Assembly (NCBI GenBank): GCA_037447125.1
Contig: JBBIHG010000003.1
Coordinates: 8,493-72,492 of the forward strand
From: Chloroflexota bacterium
GTDB taxonomy: Bacteria > Chloroflexota > Anaerolineae > Aggregatilineales > Aggregatilineaceae
Length of the DNA: 64,000 nt
Direction of reading: 5' to 3'
A program made the translations under genes and the position numbers. Positions 341 to 20,322 of this stretch are shown here, in pieces; position 1 is the stretch's first letter, and each line of letters opens with the position of its first letter. The notes beneath the pieces were generated by a model. That model saw only the letters and a program-made list of their open reading frames with translations, was not told the DNA's origin and did not search any database.

Positions 341-2713
341 CCAACCGGGCGATTGCGCCCCTTCCTGGAACGGGGAGCGCCGCCGCCCGCCGGCCCGGTC
401 GAGCCGCGCCGCGCGCCCTCTGAACCCGCTCCGATCACGCCGCCCGCACGGGACGAGGAACGTCATCCAGAGCGCCATTCCGAGCGCGGCGGGATGGGCG
501 ATGCGGCTGCTGCTGCAGGCGCATTGGGGGCGGCGGCTCTGTTGGGTCGCGCCCTGAGTCGCGACCAGTCGGGCGATGACAAGCCGGTGCGCGCCCCCCT
601 GCCAGACGAGAGCGCCCCCACTGACAAGGCTACCCTGCGCGCCCCGCTGCACGGCGCGATCCCTCCCCCCACGCCGCGCGAGGGTGAGCCGCACCTGCGC
701 CGCGAGATGCCCGTGGCGGCGGACGAAGCACCCACGAGCGAGGGCGCGCCGCCGGATGAGGCGCAGCTCCCCTTCACCGAGCGGATGGCGCGTCCGGCGC
801 ACCCCGAACTGCTGCGCCGCCGCGAGCAGTTGGAGGGACGGGGCCCGCGACCTGTGCCCGGCGTGCCCCTGCCAGAGCCGAAGCCGCCCGCCGGCGACCC
901 CACCCCTACCCGCCGCGCCGAGCCGCTGCCGGAGACAGTGCTGGAGCCAGAACCCGATCCCGGCCCGACCAAAACGCCGGACCCGGCGCATCTCGCCGAT
1001 TCGCAGCCCACCACACCGGCTCTCCGCGACACAGCCAAAGCCGGGCAGCCCACGGCAGAGCGCACCGCGCCGCCGGTTATGCGCCGCCCCGCGCCACCCC
1101 CCCAGCCTCCGCCGCGATCCGCGGGGCCGGTGGCGGTCGCCGGCACCGGCAGCAGCGCGCCAGAGCGTCGCGCCGCCGCGCCCGCCCCCCGCCAGATTGC
1201 CTACGAGCTGCCCGATTTCCACAAGCTGCTCAAGCGGGGCGAAGAGCGGCGCGTCAACGATGATGTGCTGCTCGAGAAGGCGCGAGTCATCGAGGATACG
1301 CTGGCCAGCTTCAGCGCGCCGGGCAAGGTCGTCGAGGTCAACCCCGGCCCGGTCATCACCCAGTTCGGCATCGAGCCGGACTACCTGATCACGCGCAGCG
1401 GCAAGAAGCAGCGCGTCAAGGTGGGGGCCATTGCCCGCCTGGACGCCGACCTGGCCCTGGCCCTGGCCGCCAAGTCGATCCGCATTGAAGCGCCGGTGCC
1501 GGGCAAGAGCATGGTCGGCATCGAGGTGCCCAACAACGAGGTGGCCCTGGTCAGCCTGCTGGACATCATGGAAGCGCCGGAGTTCACGCGCATTGAGTCC
1601 CGGCTGCGCCTGGCCCTGGGGCTGGGCGTGGACGGAACGCCGGTCGCCGCCGACCTGACGGCCATGCCGCACCTGCTCATCGCCGGCACAACCGGCTCCG
1701 GCAAGTCGGTGTGCGTCAACGCCATCATCGCCTGTCTGCTGTTGCAGAACACGCCGGACGACGTGCAGTTCATCATGGTAGACCCCAAGCGTGTCGAGCT
1801 GACCAGCTATAACGGCATTCCGCACCTGGTCGCGCCGGTCGTCGTAGACCTGGAGCGGATTGTTGGAGTGTTGCAGTGGGTGCAGCGCGAGATGGAGTCG
1901 CGCTACCACAAGTTTGCGGCCATCGGCGCGCGCAACATCCTCGACTACAACAAGAAGATCGGCCCCGACCAGCGGCGGATGCCTTACTACGTGGTGGTCA
2001 TTGACGAACTGGCCGACCTGATGATGCTGGCTCCTGACGAGACGGAGCGATTGCTGGCCCGCCTGGCGCAGATGGCCCGTGCGACCGGCATTCACCTGAT
2101 CATCAGCACGCAGCGGCCTAGCGTGGACATCATCACCGGGCTGATCAAGGCCAACTTCCCGGCGCGCATCGCCTTCATGGTCGCCTCGTCGGTAGACTCG
2201 CGGGTCATCCTCGACCAGCCGGGCGCGGAGAAGCTGCTGGGGCGCGGCGACATGCTCTTCCAGTCGCCGGACGCCGCCGCGCCGCAGCGGATGCAGGGCG
2301 TCTACGTTTCCGACGAGGAGATCACGCGCATCACCAGCTTCTGGCGCACGCAGCTTGTGCAGAAGGCCGGCTCCGATGGTCTGGCCTTGCCGGGCCGCGA
2401 GATCGCGCTCGGCGCCGAGGAAGGGCGCGGAGCGCGCGTGGGCCGCCGCGCCAGCCAGCCGCCCGCCCAGCAGGCGGCGCTGTGGGATACGGAAGAGATC
2501 AGCGACGCGGACGGCGACGGCGAGGACGATCTGTACGACCAGGCGGTTGAGCTGGTGCAGAGCCTGCGCAAGGCGTCCATCTCGCTGCTGCAGCGCCAGT
2601 TGCGCATCGGCTACACGCGCGCGGCGCGGCTGATTGACCGCATGGAGGAGGATGGCATCATCGGCCCGGCGCAGGAGGGCAGCAAGCCCCGCGAGGTGAT
2701 CAAGTACGATTGA
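2..2713 (+). CDS. ftsK: DNA translocase FtsK/SpoIIIE, 5'-partial (continues upstream of the window)
   Basis: The frame is open from the window edge with no stop before the tracked TTG at 263. A Pro/Ala-rich linker precedes the motor domain: Walker A 'LLIAGTTGSGKSVCVN', 'YYVVVIDELADLMM', 'GIHLIISTQRPSVD'. C-terminal gamma wHTH 'SISLLQRQLRIGYTRAARLIDRMEEDGIIG'. Confidence 0.93.
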   Translation, partial: GERGRLPFARGPLERTPRAAEDIIESSAEPIAADSPGAPGERGRLPFVRSPLERAPRDAEEIAESGAEPKAAGSPGERGRPPFARSPLERTPRDAEEIAESGAEPQAAGSPEAPTGRLRPFLERGAPPPAGPVEPRRAPSEPAPITPPARDEERHPERHSERGGMGDAAAAAGALGAAALLGRALSRDQSGDDKPVRAPLPDESAPTDKATLRAPLHGAIPPPTPREGEPHLRREMPVAADEAPTSEGAPPDEAQLPFTERMARPAHPELLRRREQLEGRGPRPVPGVPLPEPKPPAGDPTPTRRAEPLPETVLEPEPDPGPTKTPDPAHLADSQPTTPALRDTAKAGQPTAERTAPPVMRRPAPPPQPPPRSAGPVAVAGTGSSAPERRAAAPAPRQIAYELPDFHKLLKRGEERRVNDDVLLEKARVIEDTLASFSAPGKVVEVNPGPVITQFGIEPDYLITRSGKKQRVKVGAIARLDADLALALAAKSIRIEAPVPGKSMVGIEVPNNEVALVSLLDIMEAPEFTRIESRLRLALGLGVDGTPVAADLTAMPHLLIAGTTGSGKSVCVNAIIACLLLQNTPDDVQFIMVDPKRVELTSYNGIPHLVAPVVVDLERIVGVLQWVQREMESRYHKFAAIGARNILDYNKKIGPDQRRMPYYVVVIDELADLMMLAPDETERLLARLAQMARATGIHLIISTQRPSVDIITGLIKANFPARIAFMVASSVDSRVILDQPGAEKLLGRGDMLFQSPDAAAPQRMQGVYVSDEEITRITSFWRTQLVQKAGSDGLALPGREIALGAEEGRGARVGRRASQPPAQQAALWDTEEISDADGDGEDDLYDQAVELVQSLRKASISLLQRQLRIGYTRAARLIDRMEEDGIIGPAQEGSKPREVIKYD

Positions 2714-2828
2714 GTGGTCAGTCGGGAGTCATGGGTCTGGAGTTCGGGGACTGGTGCCAGATTCCAGACTCGTAATCTCCTATCATGTAACCGCAGGCGT
2801 TTCCCATCAGGTTGAACTGAGAACCAGG

Positions 2829-3719
2829 ATGAGCATTCCTCAACCCTTTCCGTACCAGGGAAGCAAAAGGAAGATCGCGGATACCATCATCGCGCAGCTT
2901 CCCGATGATGTGAATACTCTGATTGAGCCTTTCGCTGGTTCAGCGGCCATCTCGGTGGCGGCAGCGACCAAAGCGAAGGCTCAGCATTTCGTGCTCAACG
3001 ACGTGAACGCTCCCCTGATGGCCCTTTGGAACGAGATCATCAACCAGCCTGATTGGCTGGCTACTCAGTACGAGCACCTGTGGACTGCCCAGAGAGGCCG
3101 GGAGAAAGAATACTACTTCACCATCAGAGATGAGTTCAACCGGACTCACCAGCCCCACCATCTACTCTATTTGCTCGCCAGGTGTGTGAAAGCATCCATT
3201 CGCTACAACACGGATGGCGATTTCAACCAAGGCCCGGACAACAGAAGAAGAGGCATGCATCCTGTTACCATGCGCCGGAACATTCTGGCTACCTCGCAAC
3301 TTCTGAAAGGCAAGACAACCGTTCACGCGCTTGACTATCGGGAAATCATCTACGAAGCGCGCCCTCTCGATGTGATTTACATGGATCCGCCTTATCAAGG
3401 GGTGTGCAAGAAACAAGACCCGCGTTATCTGCAAAGCCTGTCGTTCGAGTCGTTTGTCGCCTCTCTGCACGCGCTCAATCTAAGAAATATATCCTACATT
3501 GTCAGCTACGACGGGCGAACAGGCACCAAAACCTATGGTGAGACGCTCCCCAAATCGCTTGATTTGAGGCACCTTGAGATCGAAGTGGGGAGATCGTCCC
3601 AAGAGACGCTTCTGGGACGCAACAAGATAACCTTTGAGTCTTTGTACCTGTCTCCGGCCCTGTGTGCCCGTCTCGAAGGCCGGCCCACCCCTTTGCGCCA
3701 GATGGCGCTATGGGCTTGA
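2829..3719 (+). CDS. D12-class (Dam-like) N6-adenine DNA methyltransferase
   Basis: 'FPYQGSKRKIA' N-terminal motif, 'EPFAGSAA' AdoMet motif, catalytic 'IYMDPPYQG'. ATG at 2829 (MSIPQPF) is preferred over the tracked 2754 start. Low-GC pocket (27/60 G+C at 3481-3540). Confidence 0.85.
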   Translation: MSIPQPFPYQGSKRKIADTIIAQLPDDVNTLIEPFAGSAAISVAAATKAKAQHFVLNDVNAPLMALWNEIINQPDWLATQYEHLWTAQRGREKEYYFTIRDEFNRTHQPHHLLYLLARCVKASIRYNTDGDFNQGPDNRRRGMHPVTMRRNILATSQLLKGKTTVHALDYREIIYEARPLDVIYMDPPYQGVCKKQDPRYLQSLSFESFVASLHALNLRNISYIVSYDGRTGTKTYGETLPKSLDLRHLEIEVGRSSQETLLGRNKITFESLYLSPALCARLEGRPTPLRQMALWA

Positions 3720-3723
3720 GAGC

Positions 3724-4596
3724 ATGACCGCACAAGACCTTCCCTCAGAGTTTCTGGAATTCTTGAGCAGCATCAGTAGCAAGCGCCCGCGCACTGTCAT
3801 CGAGCATATTCTCAGGCACGGCTACATAACCACCGAAGAACTCAAAGAACGCTATGGCTATAACCATCCCCCACGAGCCGCTCGTGATGTCCGCGAACAG
3901 GGAGTCCCGCTGGTCACCTTTCGGGTCGTGGGGAGTGATGGGCGGCAAATCGCCGCTTATCGGCTTGGCGATCCCGCTGAAGCCAGAATGGATAAGCTTG
4001 GCGGACGCAAGAACATTCCCAAACACCTCAAGAAGGAGCTTGTGACGATCAGTGGCTCCCAGTGTGCCATCTGCCTTGAAGACTACGCGGCCAGTTATCT
4101 TCAGGTTGACCATCGCATTCCGTACCAAGTCAGTGGGGAGCAGAGTTCTACACGTCTTGTTGACGACTACATGTTGCTCTGTGGGTCATGCAATCGGGCG
4201 AAATCGTGGGTCTGTGAGCACTGTGAGAACTGGCAAACCCTGAAGTCGCGTGAAGTCTGTGCGTCCTGCTATTGGGCATACCCGGACTCATATGACCATG
4301 TGGCGATGCGACCTATCCGCAGACTGGAAATTGTGTGGTCACAAGGCGAAGAGCTGACCTTCGACGAACTTAAGAGACGCGCCGAACTCTGCGAAGAAAC
4401 CTTGCAGCAGTACATCAAGGCTGTTCTGGCTCGCCATCTAGGGCACGAGCAACGCACGAACGACCTGCAAGACCGGCCCTGGCCCCATGCGCCTGCTGCT
4501 GCGCGAACCCTACGACACCGGCGCGCGCGCGTGGCCCAGTTCGACTGGACGCACGCGGCCCCGCAGTGCGACGCGGCGCTGCTCAGCGGACGATGA
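3724..4596 (+). CDS. HNH-family endonuclease with N-terminal wHTH-like region and extra Cys clusters; putative restriction partner of the 2829 methylase
   Basis: ATG at 3724 lies 4 nt after the methylase stop. HNH core 'QVDHRIPYQ...LLCGSCNRAKS' with CxxC pairs (CAIC, CGSC, CEHC, CASC). The last ~45 codons (after ~4460) are high-GC, look non-native, and overlap the convergent gene by 14 nt. Confidence 0.7.
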   Translation: MTAQDLPSEFLEFLSSISSKRPRTVIEHILRHGYITTEELKERYGYNHPPRAARDVREQGVPLVTFRVVGSDGRQIAAYRLGDPAEARMDKLGGRKNIPKHLKKELVTISGSQCAICLEDYAASYLQVDHRIPYQVSGEQSSTRLVDDYMLLCGSCNRAKSWVCEHCENWQTLKSREVCASCYWAYPDSYDHVAMRPIRRLEIVWSQGEELTFDELKRRAELCEETLQQYIKAVLARHLGHEQRTNDLQDRPWPHAPAAARTLRHRRARVAQFDWTHAAPQCDAALLSGR

Positions 4597-5020
4597 GCCA
4601 CACGCCGACGAACAGCACGACGATGCCGATCAGGCGTTGCGCGTCGAGGTGATGGACTTCGGTGCCCAGCAGCCCGAAGTGATCGAGCACCACGCCCAGG
4701 ACGAGCTGCCCGGCGACGATGAGCGTCACCGTCGGCGCGACGCCGACGCGCGGGATGGTGTAGCTGACCGCGCTGAGGATGACCAGCCCCATCAGCCCCA
4801 CCCCCAGTGTGTACCAGGGCACGCTGCGAAACTCGCCCAGGCGACCACCGCCACGCAGCAGCAACGGCACGGTCACGGCCAGCGCTCCGCCAATGTGCAC
4901 GATGAAGATGCTCTCCAGCAGCCCCAGCCGCTGCGTCATCAGGCTGGCCAGCGGTCCCTGCAAGCCCACCGCCAGCCCGCCCAGCAACCCCAACAACACC
5001 ACAATCACCAGTGTCGGCAT
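4583..5020 (-). CDS. DUF606/YdcZ-like DMT-superfamily membrane protein
   Basis: Hydrophobic ~145 aa protein starting MPTLVIVVLLGLLGG (ATG at 5020). The tracked 5185 start adds an Arg-rich non-membrane leader that is unlikely to be real. Confidence 0.6.
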   Translation of the reverse strand: MPTLVIVVLLGLLGGLAVGLQGPLASLMTQRLGLLESIFIVHIGGALAVTVPLLLRGGGRLGEFRSVPWYTLGVGLMGLVILSAVSYTIPRVGVAPTVTLIVAGQLVLGVVLDHFGLLGTEVHHLDAQRLIGIVVLFVGVWLIVR

Positions 5021-9699: not shown

Positions 9700-11247
9700 C
9701 TACAGCAGCACATACAGCGCGTGCGCCGCGTCGGTTGCCCAGTTGAGCAGCGGCGTGACCAGAATCGTGCCGAAGAGCAGCACGCCCGCCGCTGAAATGG
9801 TCAGCGCCCACTTGAAGGGCGGGTCCACTGGCACCGGCTCGTCGGACGGGCTTTCTTCCATGTACATGACCTTGACGACGATCAGGTAGTAGTACAGGCC
9901 GACGATCACGTTGGCCACGCCGACCAGGGCCAGCCAGACCAGCCCGGCATCCACCGCCGCGCGGAAGAGCAAGAACTTGCCGATGAAGCCCGCCGCCGGA
10001 GGGATACCCGCCAGGCTGAGCAGGGCCAGGGTCATGGCCAGCCCCAGCCAGGGGCTGCGCCGGCTGAAGCCGGCCAGGTCGCGAATCTGCTCGCTGCCGG
10101 TTGCCCGTGTGAAGAGGATGACCACGGCGAAAGCCAGCATGTTCGACAGCACGTACATGAACATGTAGAAGGCCACCGCCGCCGCTCCGTCGCCGCTTTT
10201 GTCGGTGGAGATGGCCGCCACGCCCATCAGCACGTAGCCAGCATGGGCGATGGTCGAATAAGCCAGCAGGCGCTTGATGTTGCTCTGTACCAGAGCCAGC
10301 AGGTTGCCCAGCGTCATCGAGACGACCGACAGCACGACGGCAAGCTGCACCCACAGGGCGCTGTAGTCGGCAACCGCCTCGGCGGCGCCGAGCAGTGCGG
10401 CCGGCGGGAAGACCGCCAGCAAGAAGCGCAGCATCAGCCCGACACTGGCCGCTTTGCTGGCCGTGCTCAGCACGGCGGTGACGGACGTGGGCGCGCCCTC
10501 ATAGACATCTGGCGTCCAGAAGTGGAACGGCACGGCGCTGATCTTGAAGGCGAAGCCCGCCATAACCAGCCCCAGGGCGACGATCACCGGCGGCTCGTTG
10601 AGGCCGGTGGTGGCGACCAGGCGGCCCAACTCGTAGATGTTCGTCTTGCCGGTCAGCCCATAAACCAGCGACAGGCCGTAGAGCGTTATCGCTGAAGCGA
10701 AGGCGCCGAACAGGAAATACTTGAGGCCCGCCTCCGCGCTGGCGTCATCGTCGCGCAGGTAGCCGGCCAGCACGTACAGCGCGATCGAGAGCGTCTCCAG
10801 CGCCAGGAAGACCATGATCAGGTCGGCAGCGGCGCTGGCCAGGCTGGCCCCGATGATCGAGACAATCAGGATGGCGTAGAAATCGCCGCGCGCGCGCAGC
10901 TTGGGAATGCCCATCGTGATCAGCGCGCCGATGCCGCCCGCCAGCAAGACCATCACCCGGAAAATCTGGGTCATGTCGTCGTGGCGCACCATGCCACCAA
11001 GCACAAGCTGATCCGTCAGTTCCCCGCTTTGCGGAGGGACACCCACCAGGAAGACGATTGCCGCGATGCCCAGCAGGCCGAACCCGGCCACATAGCCAAT
11101 GTCCTGGCGCTGCGCCCGTCGCCAGATCAGGTCGAGGGCCAGCACCAGCACGGCCAGGGCCACCATCAGGAGTTCGGGTAGGATAGCGATGACGCTCGCC
11201 TGGGCGTCCGTCGAGAAGTCCAAGTCAGCCTCCCAGCATCGAAACAA
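9700..11247 (-). CDS. nuoN: NADH-quinone oxidoreductase subunit N
   Basis: 'FHFWTPDVYEGAPTSVTAVLSTASKAAS' NuoN signature; polytopic membrane protein. The start is uncertain and overlaps the nuoM stop by 23 nt. Confidence 0.88.
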   Translation of the reverse strand: MFRCWEADLDFSTDAQASVIAILPELLMVALAVLVLALDLIWRRAQRQDIGYVAGFGLLGIAAIVFLVGVPPQSGELTDQLVLGGMVRHDDMTQIFRVMVLLAGGIGALITMGIPKLRARGDFYAILIVSIIGASLASAAADLIMVFLALETLSIALYVLAGYLRDDDASAEAGLKYFLFGAFASAITLYGLSLVYGLTGKTNIYELGRLVATTGLNEPPVIVALGLVMAGFAFKISAVPFHFWTPDVYEGAPTSVTAVLSTASKAASVGLMLRFLLAVFPPAALLGAAEAVADYSALWVQLAVVLSVVSMTLGNLLALVQSNIKRLLAYSTIAHAGYVLMGVAAISTDKSGDGAAAVAFYMFMYVLSNMLAFAVVILFTRATGSEQIRDLAGFSRRSPWLGLAMTLALLSLAGIPPAAGFIGKFLLFRAAVDAGLVWLALVGVANVIVGLYYYLIVVKVMYMEESPSDEPVPVDPPFKWALTISAAGVLLFGTILVTPLLNWATDAAHALYVLL

Positions 11248-12829
11248 TCGGCCTGACGCCGGACTCGATCATCGGCGCCATCACGCGGGGATAGACGCCG
11301 AGCAAGACCAGCCAGAAGACGAGGATGATCAGCGCGACTTTGTCGTAGACAGTGATCGTCGCGATGTGTGGGAAGCGCTCGGCGTGGAACTCGCCGAAGA
11401 AGACCTGCCCCACGACGCGCAGCACGTAAGCCGCCGTGATGACGATACCCAGCGCCGCGATCATCGCGATCAGCCCGTAGTAGTTGAAGGTGCCTGTCAG
11501 CCAGTTCGGGTCCGGGTCGAAGGCCGGGCCGTTCCACAGGCCGAGGAAGATGGGGAACTCGGCGACGAACCCGCTCAGGCCGGGCATGCCCATGCTCACC
11601 AGACCGCCGATGATGAAGGCCACCGCCACCCAGGGCATTTTCTGGACGAAGCCACCCAGGCTGGGGATGTCGCGGGTGTGGGCGCGGTCGTAGACCATGC
11701 CCACGCAGGCGAAGAAGAGGGCCGTCATGATGCCGTGCGAGAACATCTGCAGGCCCGCGCCGGTCATGCCGGTGACGTTCATGGTGGCGAAGCCCATGCT
11801 CACCAGCCCCATATGGCTGACCGAGGAGAAGCCGATGACATACTTGAAATCGCGCTGGCGCATGGCGATCAGCGCGCCATAGACCACGTTGATCAGCGTC
11901 AGAAAGACGATCCAGGGCAGGTGCACGCGCGCGCCCTCGGGCATGAGTTGCACGCCGACGCGCAGCGCGGCGAACGCGCCCAGCTTCATCAGCACGCCGG
12001 CGTGGATCATCGAGACGGCGGTCGGCGCGGCCACATGACCATCCGGCGACCAGTTGTGGAACGGCCACACACCGGCCAGCACGCCGAAGCCCAGGAAGAC
12101 CAGCGGGAACCACAGCTTGGCCGTCGTCACCGCCGACCACGCTGGCGAGAACGGCGTGTCGAACGCGCCCGCTTTCATCGCCGCGTGCAGGTGCACGAAG
12201 TCGAAGCTGTAGACGCCTGTGGCGTGGCCCGCCTTGAAGTAGAGGGCCAGGATGCCGATCAGCGCCACCACCGACCCGACCAGGATGTAGAGCGTCAGCT
12301 TCATGGCCGCGTACTGGCGCGTCTGGTCCCATCCCCAGATGACGATCAGGAAGTACATGGGGAAGATGGCCAGCTCGTAGAAGAAGAACAGCACGAACAG
12401 GTCAACGGCCAGGAAGACGCCGAACACGCCCGCCACCAGCAACAGGAAGAAGGCCATGAACTCGCGCGGGCGGTCTTCGATGCCCCACGAGATGAGCACG
12501 CCGGTGAAGCCAGCGATGGCCGTCAGCAGGACCATCGGCGCGCTGATGCCATCCACGCCCAAGTGCCACGAGATGCCCACCGCCTCGATCCACTTGACAT
12601 GATCCTCGAAGGCGAAGTACAGCCCGCCGTCGCCGTTGACGGCGTTGGCCTCGTCCACGCTGTAGCCGAAGAAGACAAAGAGCGCCAGCAACAGGGTAAG
12701 GCCGGTGGACATGGCGGCGATGATCCGCGCCTGCTCTTTGGCTTCCTTCTTGAGCAGGAGGATGACCACCGCGCCGACGATCGGCGTCAGGAGGATGCCC
12801 GTCAACACACCGCTAAACGTAATGACCAT
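11225..12829 (-). CDS. nuoM: NADH-quinone oxidoreductase subunit M (divergent copy, proximal to nuoN)
   Basis: 'ISWHLGVDGISAPMVLLT' and 'FHNWSPDGHVAAPTAVSMIHAGVLMKLGAFAALR'. Confidence 0.88.
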   Translation of the reverse strand: MVITFSGVLTGILLTPIVGAVVILLLKKEAKEQARIIAAMSTGLTLLLALFVFFGYSVDEANAVNGDGGLYFAFEDHVKWIEAVGISWHLGVDGISAPMVLLTAIAGFTGVLISWGIEDRPREFMAFFLLLVAGVFGVFLAVDLFVLFFFYELAIFPMYFLIVIWGWDQTRQYAAMKLTLYILVGSVVALIGILALYFKAGHATGVYSFDFVHLHAAMKAGAFDTPFSPAWSAVTTAKLWFPLVFLGFGVLAGVWPFHNWSPDGHVAAPTAVSMIHAGVLMKLGAFAALRVGVQLMPEGARVHLPWIVFLTLINVVYGALIAMRQRDFKYVIGFSSVSHMGLVSMGFATMNVTGMTGAGLQMFSHGIMTALFFACVGMVYDRAHTRDIPSLGGFVQKMPWVAVAFIIGGLVSMGMPGLSGFVAEFPIFLGLWNGPAFDPDPNWLTGTFNYYGLIAMIAALGIVITAAYVLRVVGQVFFGEFHAERFPHIATITVYDKVALIILVFWLVLLGVYPRVMAPMIESGVRPIVSMLGG

Positions 12830-12858
12830 GCATAAGCCTCCTATGCGTGCAGGAGAGT

Positions 12859-13209
12859 CTAGGTGTCCGCATCCACGTCAGGTGGCACCAGCGGTTCGAT
12901 CAGCGCAATCAACTCCGGAATCTCGTGCTGGACAACACGCCACACCACGTCCAGGTCCACATCGTCGTATTTATGAACCAGCTGATTGCGCATGCCAATG
13001 ATGCTTCTCCAGGGTATCTCAGGGTGCATCTCCCGAAACTCCTCCGATACCCGTCGTGCCGCCTCGCCTATGATCTGAATCGAATGCACGATGGCATACT
13101 GCCTCATCGCATCCTCAGCGAGACCATCCCGGTCCACACCCTGCGCAAACTGCTGCGCCAGGCGCGCTGAGTCCAGAATGTCAAGCAGATACGCCAGATC
13201 GCGCGACAT
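12859..13209 (-). CDS. hepT: HepT (DUF86/HEPN) toxin of a type VII HepT-MntA TA pair
   Basis: Rx4HxY motif 'RNQLVHKY'. ATG at 13209 (MSRDLAYLLDIL) overlaps the mntA 3' end by 29 nt. Confidence 0.85.
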   Translation of the reverse strand: MSRDLAYLLDILDSARLAQQFAQGVDRDGLAEDAMRQYAIVHSIQIIGEAARRVSEEFREMHPEIPWRSIIGMRNQLVHKYDDVDLDVVWRVVQHEIPELIALIEPLVPPDVDADT

Positions 13210-13519
13210 AGATCGTCTTGGCCGAGCGCAGGATCGCCCGGCGACGAAGATAATTCCGACTTTCTTCAACTGCGCGTCGGTTGACCAGGTCTACCCGGCG
13301 ACCGAATACCGCCTCGACTTCCTCTTGCATGGCGATCAAGTCGTCCAGTGACCGTTCACTCCCTGGCGCGAACGTCACCAGCACATCAATGTCACTGTCC
13401 GCGCCGAAGTCATCGCGCAGCACCGAGCCAAACAGCGCCAGTTCGTCAATCTGCCAGCGGCGGCAGAAACGCTCCAGCGCCTCTGTGGGCAATGCGACGC
13501 GCGCTTCGTCCCCGGTCAC
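13181..13519 (-). CDS. mntA: MntA minimal nucleotidyltransferase antitoxin
   Basis: GSx10DxD motif 'LFGSVLRDDFGADSDIDVLV'. Starts 13 nt after the stop of the upstream nuoM paralog. Confidence 0.85.
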   Translation of the reverse strand: MTGDEARVALPTEALERFCRRWQIDELALFGSVLRDDFGADSDIDVLVTFAPGSERSLDDLIAMQEEVEAVFGRRVDLVNRRAVEESRNYLRRRAILRSAKTIYVARSGVSA

Positions 13520-13531
13520 GCTCGCCCTTCC

Positions 13532-15250
13532 TTACCCGCCCAGGAAGCGGACCACGCCATCGTTGATCACCCGCAAGACCCAGTTCGGATACAGCCCGGT
13601 GATCAGCATCAGTGCCATCAGCGGCGCCAGCGCGATCAGCTCGCGCCGCTCGATCTCCAGCGAATGCCGCGTGCGATGGTACTCGGCCCATTCCTCGTTC
13701 AGCGGGCCGTGCAGCAGCTTCTGAATCCCCTTGAGGATGTAGATGCCCGTCACCAGCAGGCCGGCCATGCTCAGCAGCACGTAGACCGGGTACGCCTTGA
13801 ACGACCCCGACACGACCAGGAACTCGCCCACAAAGCCGTTCAGCCCCGGCAGGCCCAGCGAGGCCATGCTCACGAAGATGAGCGCCGCCCCGTATACAGG
13901 CACCAGCGGCCACAGCCCGCCGAAGCGGCGCAGATCGCGCGTGTGCGCCTTGTGATAGATCGCCCCGGCCAGCAAGAACATGCCCGCGCTGCTCAGCCCG
14001 TGATTGAACATCTGCAACACCGCGCCGTTGAGCGCCAGCCGCGCATCCTGCCGGTCGGACTCGCGCAGCTCCGCCGGATAGACCTGCTCCACTGTGTCAG
14101 CCAGTTGGGTAGCAGTCATCTTCTCGTAGCCGTCAATCCCGGCCACGCCGGCCAGCAACCCATACTGGTTGTTGGCCTCGGCCCACACCGTGCCGTACAT
14201 CAGCGCGGCCACGGCCAGCCCCAGCACGACAAAGCCCATGTGATTCACCGACGAGTAGGCGACCAGCCGCTTGAAGTCGTTCTGGCCCCACGCCCCCAGC
14301 GCCCCCAGGACAATGCCCGCCATGGCCAGGAAGCCGAGAATGTCCACCAGGTTGTAGCTGAGGCTGAACAACTGCCGCTCGACGATCCACTCCTTGGGGA
14401 AAAGGGGGATGGCCAGCCGCAGGAACCCATACGCGCCCAACTTGAGCAGCACGCCGGCCAGCAGCATCGAGCCGGCGGTCGGCGCTTCGGTGTGCGCGTC
14501 GGGCAGCCAGGTGTGGAACGGCCAGGCCGGAATCTTGATCAGAAAGGCGATGGTGAAGCCGAGCAGGGCGTAATACTTGACAATGCTCACATCCACGCCC
14601 AGAATCTCGCCCCCGCGCATCAGGTAGCGCGGCCATTCCTGGAGCATCACCGGGATGTCGAAGCTCCCCACCGTCAGGCCGATGAGCTGCGTGGCCAGGA
14701 GCAAGCCCAGCGACCCGGCCATTGTGTACAGGAAGAACTTGTTGGCCGCATAGCGCCGGTTCTCGCCGCCCCACAGGTAGATCAGGAAGTACATCGGCAC
14801 CAGCCCGATCTCCCAAAAGAGGAAGAAGATCACCATGTCCAGCGCCACGAAGACGCCGAGTAGCCCTGTCTCCAGGAAGAGGAAGAGGGCCATGTGCGCC
14901 TGCACCCGGTCTTTGACCTCGAACGAGATCAGGATGGCCAGCGGGACGAGCAGGCCGGTCAGCAGGATCATGGTCGCGCTCAGGCCATCCACGCCCACGT
15001 GCCACGAGATGTTGAGCTGCGGGAACCACTGCGCCTGCGCTTCAAAGGACCATTGGCCAGCGCCGGGCGGGTTGGCGTGGACGTCGTAGAAGACGCCGAT
15101 GGCCATGACCATCACCACCAGGCTGATGACCAGCGCCGTCCAGCGCGCCAGGCGCTCGCGCCCCCGCGGGATGATGAAAACCACCGCCGCGCCGACGATC
15201 GGCAGCAGGGTCATCGTGGTCAGAAAATCGAGGGGCAGAATATCATTCAT
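13532..15250 (-). CDS. nuoM: NADH-quinone oxidoreductase subunit M, second copy (572 aa, with an internal ~50 aa insertion)
   Basis: 'ISWHVGVDGLSATMILLT' and 'FHTWLPDAHTEAPTAGSMLLAGVLLKLGAYGFLR'. Confidence 0.9.
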   Translation of the reverse strand: MNDILPLDFLTTMTLLPIVGAAVVFIIPRGRERLARWTALVISLVVMVMAIGVFYDVHANPPGAGQWSFEAQAQWFPQLNISWHVGVDGLSATMILLTGLLVPLAILISFEVKDRVQAHMALFLFLETGLLGVFVALDMVIFFLFWEIGLVPMYFLIYLWGGENRRYAANKFFLYTMAGSLGLLLATQLIGLTVGSFDIPVMLQEWPRYLMRGGEILGVDVSIVKYYALLGFTIAFLIKIPAWPFHTWLPDAHTEAPTAGSMLLAGVLLKLGAYGFLRLAIPLFPKEWIVERQLFSLSYNLVDILGFLAMAGIVLGALGAWGQNDFKRLVAYSSVNHMGFVVLGLAVAALMYGTVWAEANNQYGLLAGVAGIDGYEKMTATQLADTVEQVYPAELRESDRQDARLALNGAVLQMFNHGLSSAGMFLLAGAIYHKAHTRDLRRFGGLWPLVPVYGAALIFVSMASLGLPGLNGFVGEFLVVSGSFKAYPVYVLLSMAGLLVTGIYILKGIQKLLHGPLNEEWAEYHRTRHSLEIERRELIALAPLMALMLITGLYPNWVLRVINDGVVRFLGG

Positions 15251-15361
15251 CTGCGTGTGCTTCTCCTTCTCACCGGAGTATCACCGGCGTCGCGCGCAGG
15301 CCCCGCGCCCCGCTGCGCCAGCCAGTCAGCCGGGCGCGGGGCGGCAGGGCAGGACGCCGCG

Positions 15362-17623
<2,262 letters not shown>

Positions 17624-17646
17624 AAGCCATTCCTGCCTGTTCGTTG

Positions 17647-17681
17647 TCAGTGGTCAGTGATCAGTTCTCAGTGGTCGGTCG
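17647..17681. repeat. Short heptamer tandem repeat (TCAGTGG TCAGTGA TCAGTTC TCAGTGG TCGGTCG)
   Basis: Read directly in the nuoK-nuoL spacer. Confidence 0.6.
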
Positions 17682-17742
17682 GCGTCCGCGTGGGCGAGAC
17701 GATGCATGACCTGACCGCTGACTGCTGAAAGCTGATGACTCC

Positions 17743-18051
17743 TCACCACTTGAGCATATTCACGTCTTCGGCAATGATTGACTGGCGCTTGCGATAGATG
17801 CTGATGATCAGCGCCAGGCCGACGGCCACTTCCGCTGCCGCCACCACGAACACGAACACGGCGAACGCCTGCCCGCTGAGGTCAACCGGCGTGTTGTAGC
17901 GCCAGAAAGCGACCAGGTTGATGTTGACTGCGTTCAACATCAGCTCAATGCTCATCAAGATAGCGATGGCGTTGCGCCGCGAGAGCACGCCGAACAGGCC
18001 CGTGCTGAACAGCGCCGCCGCCACCACCAGGTACATCCACAATGGCACCAT
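17743..18051 (-). CDS. nuoK: NADH-quinone oxidoreductase subunit K
   Basis: 102 aa, three TM helices, '[17 protein letters not shown]'. Confidence 0.92.
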
Positions 18052-18086
18052 ACTCGTCCCTCGCCCCGGTCGTACCGCGCGACCGG

Positions 18087-18653
18087 CTAATCTTCGCCGC
18101 GCTCGTCTGCTTTCGCTTTGTCAGGGCTGACCAGCAAGACCGCCCCGATCAATGCCGCCATGAGCAGCACCGACGCCACCTCAAAGGGCAGCATGTATTT
18201 GTCCGGGGCCACCAGGTCCTTGCCCAGTTGGACGATGCTATCCGCTGGCACGTCCGCCGGACTCTTCTCGGTGAAGTCAGCGCTCCAGTCGTCCACGCCC
18301 AGGTCGTCCATGATCGGCGAGACGACCGACACCAGCAGCACGAAGAAAAAGGCGGCCAGCACCAGGTTGAGCGCCCACTGCCGGTTGAAGATGGCCGGGA
18401 CCTGGGTGACGCTCGGCGTGAGCATGATCGCCAGGATGATCAGGATGGCGATGGCCCCGATATAGACGACGACCTGCACACCGGCCAGGAACGGCGCGGC
18501 CAGCAGCACGAACAGCCCGGCCACGCCCAGCAGCGCCACCATCAGGTACAAACCGGCGTGAAACAGGTTGCGCGCCGAGACGACCAGCAAACCGCCACCC
18601 AGGGTGATCGCGCTCAAGATCAGGAATACAATGGACTCCGCTGTCAGTTCCAC
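18087..18653 (-). CDS. nuoJ: NADH-quinone oxidoreductase subunit J
   Basis: '[28 protein letters not shown]...[18 protein letters not shown]'. Confidence 0.9.
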
Positions 18654-18662
18654 ACGCCCCTC

Positions 18663-19856
18663 CTAGTCGCCTGCACCGGCCACCGACTCGACTGGCAGAT
18701 CGGTCCCGGCCACGCGCGCCTCGATCCGCGCCCGCTCGCGGCGTCCCCGATCGGCCAGCAGCGCCCCGATGACCACGAGCATGGCCACATTGGTCAGCAG
18801 CAGGACCAGCGTGGGCACTACGGCCTCGCCGGCGCTGTTGATCTGGTTGCTGTTGGGGATCAGCTTCCACACCAGGGCGACGACGAGCAGGTTCGCCAGC
18901 CCGACCGGCACCAGGAATTTCCAGTTGAAATCGAGCAGGTGATCAATGCGCAGGCGCGGCAGCGTCATGCGCACCCAGACCAGCACCCAATAGACGAACA
19001 GGCTCTTGATCAGCAGGTAGAAAAAGCCCAGGATGGCCACATCCTCGGCGAACGGGCCGCGCCAGCCGCCCAGGAAGAGGATCGCCGTCAGCACGCCGAC
19101 AGTGAAGGCGTGCAGGAACTCGGCCACATAGAACATGCCGAACTTCATGCCCGAATACTCGATGTGAAAGCCGGATACCAGCTCGGACTCGGCTTCGAGC
19201 AGGTCGAACGGGCCGCGCCCGATCTCGGCCTGGCTGGAGATCAGGAAGATCAGCACGGTCAGCGGCACGGCGAACACGTACCAGAGGTGCTGTTCGCGCA
19301 CGATCTCCTGCGTGCTCATCGAGCCAGAGAGCAGCACTGGCACCAGCAGGGCCAGCACCAGCGGCACCTCGTAACTGACCAGTTGGGCGACCGCGCGGAA
19401 GGCCGACAGCAGCGCGTACTTGTTGTTGCTGCCCCAACCGGCCATGATCACCGCCACCGTGCCCAGCGACCCCACCGCCAGCAGGTAGAGCACACCGATG
19501 TTCAGGTCGGTGCCGATCCACACCGCGCTGAAAGGCACCACCGCCCAGATCAACGTCACGGCCAGCACTGACAGAATCGGGGCCAGGTTGTAAACCCAGC
19601 GGTCCACGCCCTTGTTCATGATGTCTTCTTTGAGCAGGATTTTGACGGTGTCGGCCACGGTCTGGATCAGCCCGAAGGGACCCACCCGGTTCGGCCCGAC
19701 GCGGTCCTGGAAGCGCGCGGCCCACTTGCGCTCCAGCCAGATGCCCAGCAGCGTCCACAGCAGGCCAAAGACGGCGACGACGATCACCCCGATCGCCTTG
19801 GCGATGAGCACTGCCAGATCGCGCGAGAACCCAATATCCTGTAACAGACCTGTCAT
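18663..19856 (-). CDS. nuoH: NADH-quinone oxidoreductase subunit H
   Basis: '[38 protein letters not shown]'-type NuoH signature. Only 9 nt separate its stop from the nuoJ start, so nuoI is not there. Confidence 0.93.
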   Translation of the reverse strand: [397 protein letters not shown]

Positions 19857-19962
19857 GGTCGCAGTCTCCGGCGAACGTCATTCATGATTCGGCCAACGCC
19901 GCAGGCCGTTGGCACAGCAAAAAGCCGGTACGCCCCCCTGCGCATACCGACTCTCTCTCCGG

Positions 19963-20322
19963 TTATGACCAGCGCAGCGCACCTTTGCGCCAGGTATAGA
20001 CGAGCGCGACAACCAGCAAGAAGATGAAGACGGCCATCTCGAACAGGGCGAACAGCCCCAACTGGTTGTAGGCCAGCGCCCAGGGGAATAGAAAGATCAG
20101 CTCGACACTAAAGATGACGAAGACCAGGGCGAAGACATAGTACTGCGCCCGGAACTGCGTCCATGGCGAGCCGACCATCTCGACGCCGCACTCGTAAGGT
20201 TGCTGCTTGACTCGATTCGGACGCCTGGGGGCGAGGAGTTTGCCCAAAACGATCGGGGCTGCTGGGAGCGTCCAGCCCAGCGCAAAGAAGAGGCCGATAA
20301 AAATCCATTCGTTCAAATTCAT
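19963..20322 (-). CDS. nuoA: NADH-quinone oxidoreductase subunit A
   Basis: ATG at 20322 (MNLNEWIFIGLFF), 'QPYECGVE' motif, 119 aa. The tracked longer ORF to 20550 runs over an intergenic repeat. Confidence 0.9.
   Translation of the reverse strand: MNLNEWIFIGLFFALGWTLPAAPIVLGKLLAPRRPNRVKQQPYECGVEMVGSPWTQFRAQYYVFALVFVIFSVELIFLFPWALAYNQLGLFALFEMAVFIFLLVVALVYTWRKGALRWS

Follow-up and report, generated by a model that had tools for sequence, protein, structure and literature searches.

The window analysed here, a stretch of 64,000 nucleotides from a Chloroflexota bacterium (contig C3:8493-72492; assembly of 3.77 Mb, 170 contigs, 98.8% complete), carries on its minus strand, between positions 9700 and 20322, ten co-oriented genes in the order NuoA-H-J-K-L-M-[MntA/HepT]-M-N. 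This locus is very probably the membrane-arm operon of an Anaerolineae (Chloroflexota) complex I of the '2M' type, with two NuoM subunits, and its quinone module is encoded separately on contig C25. Directly observed are the gene content, the identity and phylogeny of the subunits, the length of the NuoL lateral helix, and the split layout together with its conservation. The second NuoM (M2) deviates from all others at two positions of its transmembrane (TM) helices 7 and 8, and the long lateral helix is also found in clusters with a single NuoM. Both features affect how the number of pumps in such complexes is to be read.

Gene content and subunit phylogeny

Genes were called from a listing of open reading frames (ORFs) combined with Pfam and NCBIfam scans, and every gene of the cluster is assigned to a family without ambiguity. 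All lie on the minus strand. The first, nuoA (19963..20322; 120 aa), begins at an ATG preceded by GGAGGG, which is also where homology begins, although its longest ORF extends to 20550. It is followed by nuoH (18663..19856; 397 aa; PF00146, 376 bits), nuoJ (18087..18653; 188 aa), nuoK (17743..18051; 102 aa) and nuoL (15362..17623; 753 aa; TIGR01974, 583 bits). Next come the first nuoM copy (M1; 13532..15250; 572 aa), which adjoins nuoL, and the second (M2; 11225..12829; 534 aa), which adjoins nuoN (9700..11247; 515 aa; TIGR01770, 383 bits). The nuoH and nuoJ genes are separated by 9 nt, with no nuoI between them, and nuoA and nuoH by 106 nt; there is therefore no room for a hidden nuoB-G or nuoI. 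Neither the ORF listing nor the family scans detect nuoB, C, D, E, F, G or I in the cluster. The gene order, these absences and the two gaps had been claimed in a preliminary description of this DNA and are borne out, the gap lengths to the nucleotide.

The same description had recognized two NuoM paralogs by the signature W.PD.H..APT. Both copies carry it and match TIGR01972 (483 bits for M1 and 450 bits for M2). In a maximum-likelihood tree of L, M, N and Mrp subunits, M1, M2, E. coli NuoM and the NuoM of a second nuo operon of this genome (contig C1) form one clade with 100/100 support. This clade stands apart from NuoN, NuoL/MrpA and MrpD, and a 63-row tree agrees; thus neither copy groups with NuoN or the Mrp antiporter subunits, a placement that would have spoken against a second NuoM. 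The nuoN product falls in the NuoN clade, likewise with 100/100 support. Within NuoM, M1 and the single M of related one-M clusters are sisters, and M2 forms a separate clade on a long branch, sister to all remaining NuoM.

The quinone module on a second contig

The whole genome was searched by tblastn with the proteins of the window and by family searches. It contains exactly three sets of antiporter-like genes: the L, M, M, N set of the locus on C3, an L, M, N set in a complete 14-gene nuoA-N operon with one NuoM (C1, 240.3-257.2 kb), and the MrpA/D genes of an Mrp cluster (C25, 20-25 kb). At the start of C25, family searches identify an isolated three-gene cassette (1318-4664) constituted of nuoB (1318-2043), a fused nuoCD (2140-3984; a single protein of 614 aa that matches both PF00329 and PF00346) and nuoI (4008-4664; two 4Fe-4S motifs). 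Its proteins contain the N2-cluster motifs CCAIEM, GACA and PGCPP, and NuoCD ends in a NuoD-type, cysteine-free C-terminus ('GEVDR') in place of a [NiFe] site. The cassette is therefore a quinone module and not a hydrogenase. A group-4 hydrogenase large subunit is excluded by this C-terminus, by a Complex1_49kDa match of 286 bits and by a GPQHP..HG motif.

A search for the missing nuoB, C, D and I (and E, F and G) elsewhere in the genome had been recommended, and it yields the cassette on C25 and the full 14-gene set on C1. Loss of the peripheral arm is excluded, because nuoB-CD-I sits on C25. The earlier wording of a cluster 'stripped of every peripheral-arm gene' is thus correct for the locus but not for the enzyme. 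Neither the window cluster nor the 3-4 kb around the nuoB-nuoCD-nuoI cassettes encodes NuoEFG, and NuoE/F/G-like genes are confined to the C1 operon and a probable formate dehydrogenase locus on contig C64. Given the separate cassette and the absence of NuoEFG from either piece, the enzyme is encoded at two separate loci, and no NADH module is dedicated to it.

Conservation among relatives and across the class

Related loci were collected from metagenome-assembled genomes (MAGs) labelled Anaerolineae, Aggregatilineaceae or Thermoflexus. The order A-H-J-K-L-M-M-N, or the part of it covered by the contig, recurs without nuoB, C, D and I in 20 of 21 such loci, with NuoL identities of 70-96%. The remaining locus is distant (36% NuoL identity) and arranged differently.

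The class was surveyed in an even sample of 81 genomes. Orthologues of M2 occur in 19 of them, each time adjoining an M1. In 18 of these 19, a fused nuoCD orthologue lies away from the membrane cluster, ∼30 kb off on the same contig in two genomes (G013 and G060) and on another contig otherwise. The exception is G018 (contig C794; L037, L082), where unfused nuoC and nuoD are contiguous with nuoH, nuoI, nuoJ ... L-M-M-N in a Chloroflexus-like arrangement; contiguous and split layouts therefore both exist within the class. Each of the 13 nuoCD loci that were fetched (10 from 2M genomes and three from one-M genomes) is a nuoB-nuoCD-nuoI cassette standing alone, without further nuo genes in the surrounding 3-4 kb. 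A sister group of split clusters (G054, G007, G021, G035 and others; L048-L063, L083-L085) combines a single NuoM (nuoL-M-N) with a long lateral helix and with a separate nuoB-nuoCD-nuoI cassette of the same type. Its frequency in the class is similar to that of the two-M form.

NuoL and its lateral helix

In alignment with E. coli NuoL, the protein of the window is longer by a net 140 aa and contains 155 inserted residues. Its fold is confirmed by Foldseek, with TM-scores (normalized to target length) of at least 0.8 against solved NuoL, ND5 and NdhF chains, and its best sequence match in the Protein Data Bank (PDB) is cyanobacterial NdhF1. An AlphaFold2 model built from an 86-sequence alignment (predicted local distance difference test, pLDDT, of 83.8) was analysed with DSSP. 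The lateral helix region (residues 630-725; 15449..15736, minus strand) comprises short helices at 630-644 and a continuous helix of 80 residues at 646-725, and TM16 follows at 730-752. The equivalent stretch of E. coli has 51 residues. The extension of ∼29-30 residues corresponds to ∼45 Å at 1.5 Å per residue.

An extra lateral-helix segment with a duplicated IDG motif had been noticed beforehand. It is present at residues 661-697 (15533..15643, minus strand), where ∼32 residues absent from E. coli NuoL arise as a tandem duplicate of an 'ID..IDG' unit, and the alignment places them inside the helix and not elsewhere. Collectively, the position of these residues and the NuoM-clade phylogeny uphold the '2M-type architecture' proposed initially. 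The enlargement of NuoL to 753 aa is likewise real as regards size and helix extension, but most of the extra length lies outside the lateral helix, to which only ∼32 of the 155 inserted residues belong.

Several inserts account for other parts of the length. The His/Asp-rich insert noted at the outset is a loop at residues 386-413 (16385..16468, minus strand; GEHNAHERGHGHDHHEDPDG...), 28 aa longer than the loop of E. coli and disordered in the model. Its His-rich stretch is conserved in the alignment consensus sequences of both NuoL families of Anaerolineae, including the canonical NuoL of this genome, and the loop may be a metal-binding site. An insert of 36 aa relative to E. coli (residues 516-551; 15971-16078, minus strand; KGWVVWWNKRRWSVDYKLMQEPITRRDKLSANQMEA) is modelled at pLDDT of at least 90 as short helices before the next TM helix, and is conserved in this NuoL family. 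The others are a 15-aa insert at 210-224 and smaller ones.

Helix length, M2 and the number of pumps

Several observations weigh against the assignment of the locus to a four-pump complex I joined to the C25 cassette. They concern the helix, the cassette, the structural record and a residue of M2.

The helix was measured in 40 nuoL-M(-M)-N clusters fetched from the class, as the distance from a Y.DE.Y motif to the C-terminus of NuoL. This distance is 103-118 residues in 17 of 17 two-M clusters (16 fetched plus that of the window), and it reaches at least 103 residues in 16 of 16 sister one-M clusters. Among canonical operons, it is 107-114 in a subclade formed by G012, G036 and the C1 operon of this genome, and 77-79 in four others; in two further canonical operons among the 40 clusters, the motif was not found. 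E. coli has 73. The canonical NuoL of C1 (243381-245669; L009:5352-7640, minus strand; 762 aa), from a one-M operon, is a long-helix protein as well. Its modelled helix spans residues 650-760, with ∼80 residues from Y.DE.Y to QTG as in the NuoL of the window, and its lateral helix exceeds that of E. coli by ∼30 residues. Here the extension comes from its own duplicated unit (VDWRFLHD / VDKQIIDR). Helix length thus fails to discriminate 2M from one-M clusters in this class. A tree of the NuoL core places the one-M group, though weakly supported, inside the two-M clusters. Two histories would fit: loss of M2 with retention of the long helix, or a lengthening that preceded the second M. Since the ∼30-residue lengthening is common to the one-M sister clusters, helix and extra subunit would be evolutionarily separable. 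A second NuoM with a long helix had been taken as the 2M signature, and both are indeed present; however, because the long helix accompanies a single NuoM elsewhere in the class, it is compatible with a fourth pump but no proof of one, and is weaker evidence than assumed.

As to the cassette, the type found on C25 also occurs in genomes with the one-M version, and its tie to this membrane arm is one of co-occurrence only. As to structure, no 2M complex is known to have been purified or solved, and the PDB search returned none; the best match to NuoL there has 34% identity, and the assembly of four pumps in one complex is therefore putative.

The last point is the proton relay. In M1, alignment with E. 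coli NuoM shows that E144, K234, K265, H322, H348 and E407 are all kept, so that the canonical set of Glu-TM5, Lys-TM7, Lys-TM8 and Glu-TM12 is complete. This set is incomplete in M2, where Leu251 (codon 12077-12079) occupies the position of K234 in TM7, and a HMMER alignment with Paracoccus NuoM points to the same column. The TM7 lysine is regarded as essential in E. coli NuoM. Conservation was assessed in 134 M2 sequences, i.e. 120 database homologues (58-90% identity) and those of the class genomes. The TM7 position is Leu in 132 and Thr in two of them, and never Lys.

This replacement in all 134 sequences is the main support for an alternative in which M2 does not pump but serves as a structural or relay spacer. 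The complex would then have four antiporter-like subunits and an H+/2e- ratio no higher than that of ordinary complex I. The isolation of M2 on its long branch, as sister to all other NuoM, and a helix length that does not track the number of M genes point the same way. Nevertheless, the rest of the relay set is almost invariant (Glu-TM5 in 134/134, Lys-TM8 in 130/134, the two histidines in 134/134 and 132/134, and Glu-TM12 in 133/134), which argues for selection on proton chemistry. Furthermore, a screen for lineage-specific charged residues in 46 M2 and 43 other NuoM sequences identifies His276 (codon 12002-12004) on TM8 of M2, six residues before Lys-TM8. It is present in 46/46 M2, and in this column all 43 other NuoM have Leu. 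Judged from the alignments, His276 is a candidate replacement for the lost TM7 lysine. Because the other relay residues are near-invariant, it can be argued that M2 still handles protons, with a re-wired input side. A non-pumping M2 is considered unlikely, although it is the strongest of the alternatives.

Much less probable is a membrane arm that lacks a quinone module of its own and pairs with NuoB, C, D and I (and E, F and G) of C1, so that three-pump and four-pump arms would share one peripheral arm. In its favour are the absence of peripheral genes from the locus, the presence of one complete canonical operon in the genome and the long lateral helix of the canonical NuoL. Against it stand the separate nuoB-nuoCD-nuoI cassette and the fused nuoCD orthologue present in 18 of the 19 class genomes with M2; in the sole exception, C, D, H and I are contiguous with L-M-M-N. 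In addition, NuoA, H, J and K of the cluster are only 35-50% identical to the C1 copies, which points to an interface of their own.

A redox-independent, Mrp-like cation/proton antiporter made of Nuo membrane subunits would account for a locus that encodes only membrane subunits, some of them homologous to MrpA/MrpD, but it can hardly be entertained, given that NuoH and NuoA, which form the quinone chamber and the NuoB/D docking surface and have no role in Mrp, are retained and conserved, that a genuine Mrp cluster is located elsewhere on C25, that L, M and N belong to Nuo and not to Mrp clades, and that the B-CD-I cassette co-occurs with the cluster.

A mechanistic model and its implications

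The membrane-arm operon of a 2M complex I with a separately encoded quinone module remains the best explanation of the locus. The product would be a quinone oxidoreductase of the complex I type, whose membrane arm has four antiporter-like subunits, in the order L-M1-M2-N, in place of the usual three. NuoB, NuoCD and NuoI from C25 would dock on NuoH, A, J and K. Electrons would pass from a donor, for which ferredoxin or the NuoEFG of the C1 operon are candidates, through clusters N6a/b and N2 to menaquinone. A charge signal would then pass N, M2, M1 and L in turn along the central polar axis, while the NuoL lateral helix, with its additional ∼45 Å, would strap all four antiporter-like subunits together. 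M2 would act in this chain as a re-wired module, without the TM7 lysine, with Glu-TM5, Lys-TM8, the two histidines and Glu-TM12 kept, and with a histidine gained in TM8. Three elements of this model are putative: the joining of all four pumps into a single complex, the identity of the electron donor, and the proton stoichiometry.

The changes Lys to Leu in TM7 and Leu to His in TM8 are both ∼100% lineage-specific. It is tempting to propose, though tentatively, that M2 of Anaerolineae is an old NuoM lineage marked by these two changes and not simply a fourth standard pump, and that helix and subunit are separable; this view may perhaps hold, with the balance still tipped against it. According to the textbook inference, a long helix plus a second NuoM amounts to 5 H+/2e-. 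If M2 is not a standard pump, this inference would not hold for the class, and M2 might gate or relay differently. Anaerolineae are abundant in digesters and sediments, and their energy conservation is poorly known. With both halves located, the locus is a further well-resolved example of the split 2M complex I of this class. The long helix without a second NuoM and the changes in TM7 and TM8 of M2 call for caution in reading pump number and stoichiometry from gene content, and the latter changes name specific residues for mutation once a 2M enzyme is purified. Both the long helix without a second M and the paired changes go beyond the accessible literature; in the text of that literature, which does not extend to Chadwick et al. 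2018 itself, no report of the loss of the TM7 lysine in M2 was found.

Genes inserted in, flanking or resembling the cluster

The spacer between M1 and M2 (12830-13531) contains a HepT/MntA pair on the operon strand (minus). The mntA gene (13181..13519; PF01909; NF047752) encodes a nucleotidyltransferase antitoxin and hepT (12859..13209; PF01934, 101 bits) a HEPN RNase toxin. The hepT ORF comprises 136 aa and extends to 13269, with a probable start at M21 (13209). Relatives display four states at this site: no insert, with a spacer of ∼210-260 nt (L010, L011, L013, L016 and L018), mntA alone (L012, L015 and L025), the full pair, or a different mntA/hepT pair that is ∼49-60% identical (L026). 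The pair is therefore a secondary, labile and lineage-variable insertion that does not belong to the respiratory enzyme. Elsewhere, the genome has at least five more HepT/MntA-like loci. The flanks of the cluster are unrelated to it: an NmrA-like gene and UvrD lie on its downstream side, and a CHRD-domain gene and a FemAB gene on its upstream side.

The NuoE/F/G-like genes of contig C64 (213-5377; L086) encode a NuoE-like protein, a NuoF-like protein and then a molybdopterin protein of the NuoG/FdhA type, split by an in-frame TGA at 3653-3655 (...CARL-TGA-HSSTVAGL). This is probably an NAD-linked selenocysteine formate dehydrogenase. The locus has no nuo neighbours, and its role as the missing NADH module, possible in principle, is unsupported.

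Two side observations concern other nuo-like genes. Two additional Oxidored_q6 matches, on contigs C11 and C33, lie in open frames of 281 and 340 aa and resemble hydrogenase small subunits. In the canonical operon of C1, the NuoJ ORF (L009:8057-9508, minus strand) is ∼430-480 aa long and has a DUF4397 domain inserted after the N-terminal part of Oxidored_q3.

Comparison with known systems

The layout of the locus is the one published for the class Anaerolineae and is ordinary for the lineage. The split Chloroflexi 2M layout is already described in PMC7117926, which cites Chadwick et al. 2018, and that article includes a tree in which its nuoM genes appear alongside nuoM1 and nuoM2 of Anaerolinea thermophila. 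The 2M complex I of the A. thermophila type (Chadwick, Hemp, Fischer & Orphan 2018, ISME J 12:2668, via PMC7117926) is like that of the window in its nuoL-M-M-N order with two NuoM-clade genes, in a fused nuoC-nuoD that lies, with nuoB and nuoI, outside the membrane operon, in the lack of nuoEFG from either piece and in the lengthened lateral helix of NuoL. It is unlike it in the HepT/MntA pair, which stands here between the nuoM genes and is absent or different in most relatives.

Chloroflexus aggregans, as described in PMC8004040, has a 2M cluster (Cagg_1620-1631) and a 14-gene operon, and both nuo sets were reportedly transcribed. It shares with the present genome a second nuoM between nuoM and nuoN, no nuoEFG in the cluster and a complete 14-gene operon alongside. 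However, its nuoB, C and D are contiguous with the membrane genes (nuoABCDHJKLMMN), whereas here they are on another contig, with C and D fused. The 2M complex I of Nitrospira likewise combines an extra NuoM with an insertion in the lateral helix of NuoL that is similar in length, according to PMC9040806 and PMC6606698. It belongs to another phylum, and its insertion, cited by PMC9040806, is of 26 aa versus ∼30-32 aa here. The origin of 2M complexes is called convergent in the title of Chadwick 2018.

Finally, the 11-subunit complex I/NDH-1 enzymes without NuoEFG (cyanobacterial NDH-1 and the Fpo type) resemble the enzyme proposed here in combining a quinone module and a membrane arm with no NADH-oxidizing module. 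They differ from it in their known donors (ferredoxin and F420H2) and in having three antiporter-like subunits, where the present locus encodes four.

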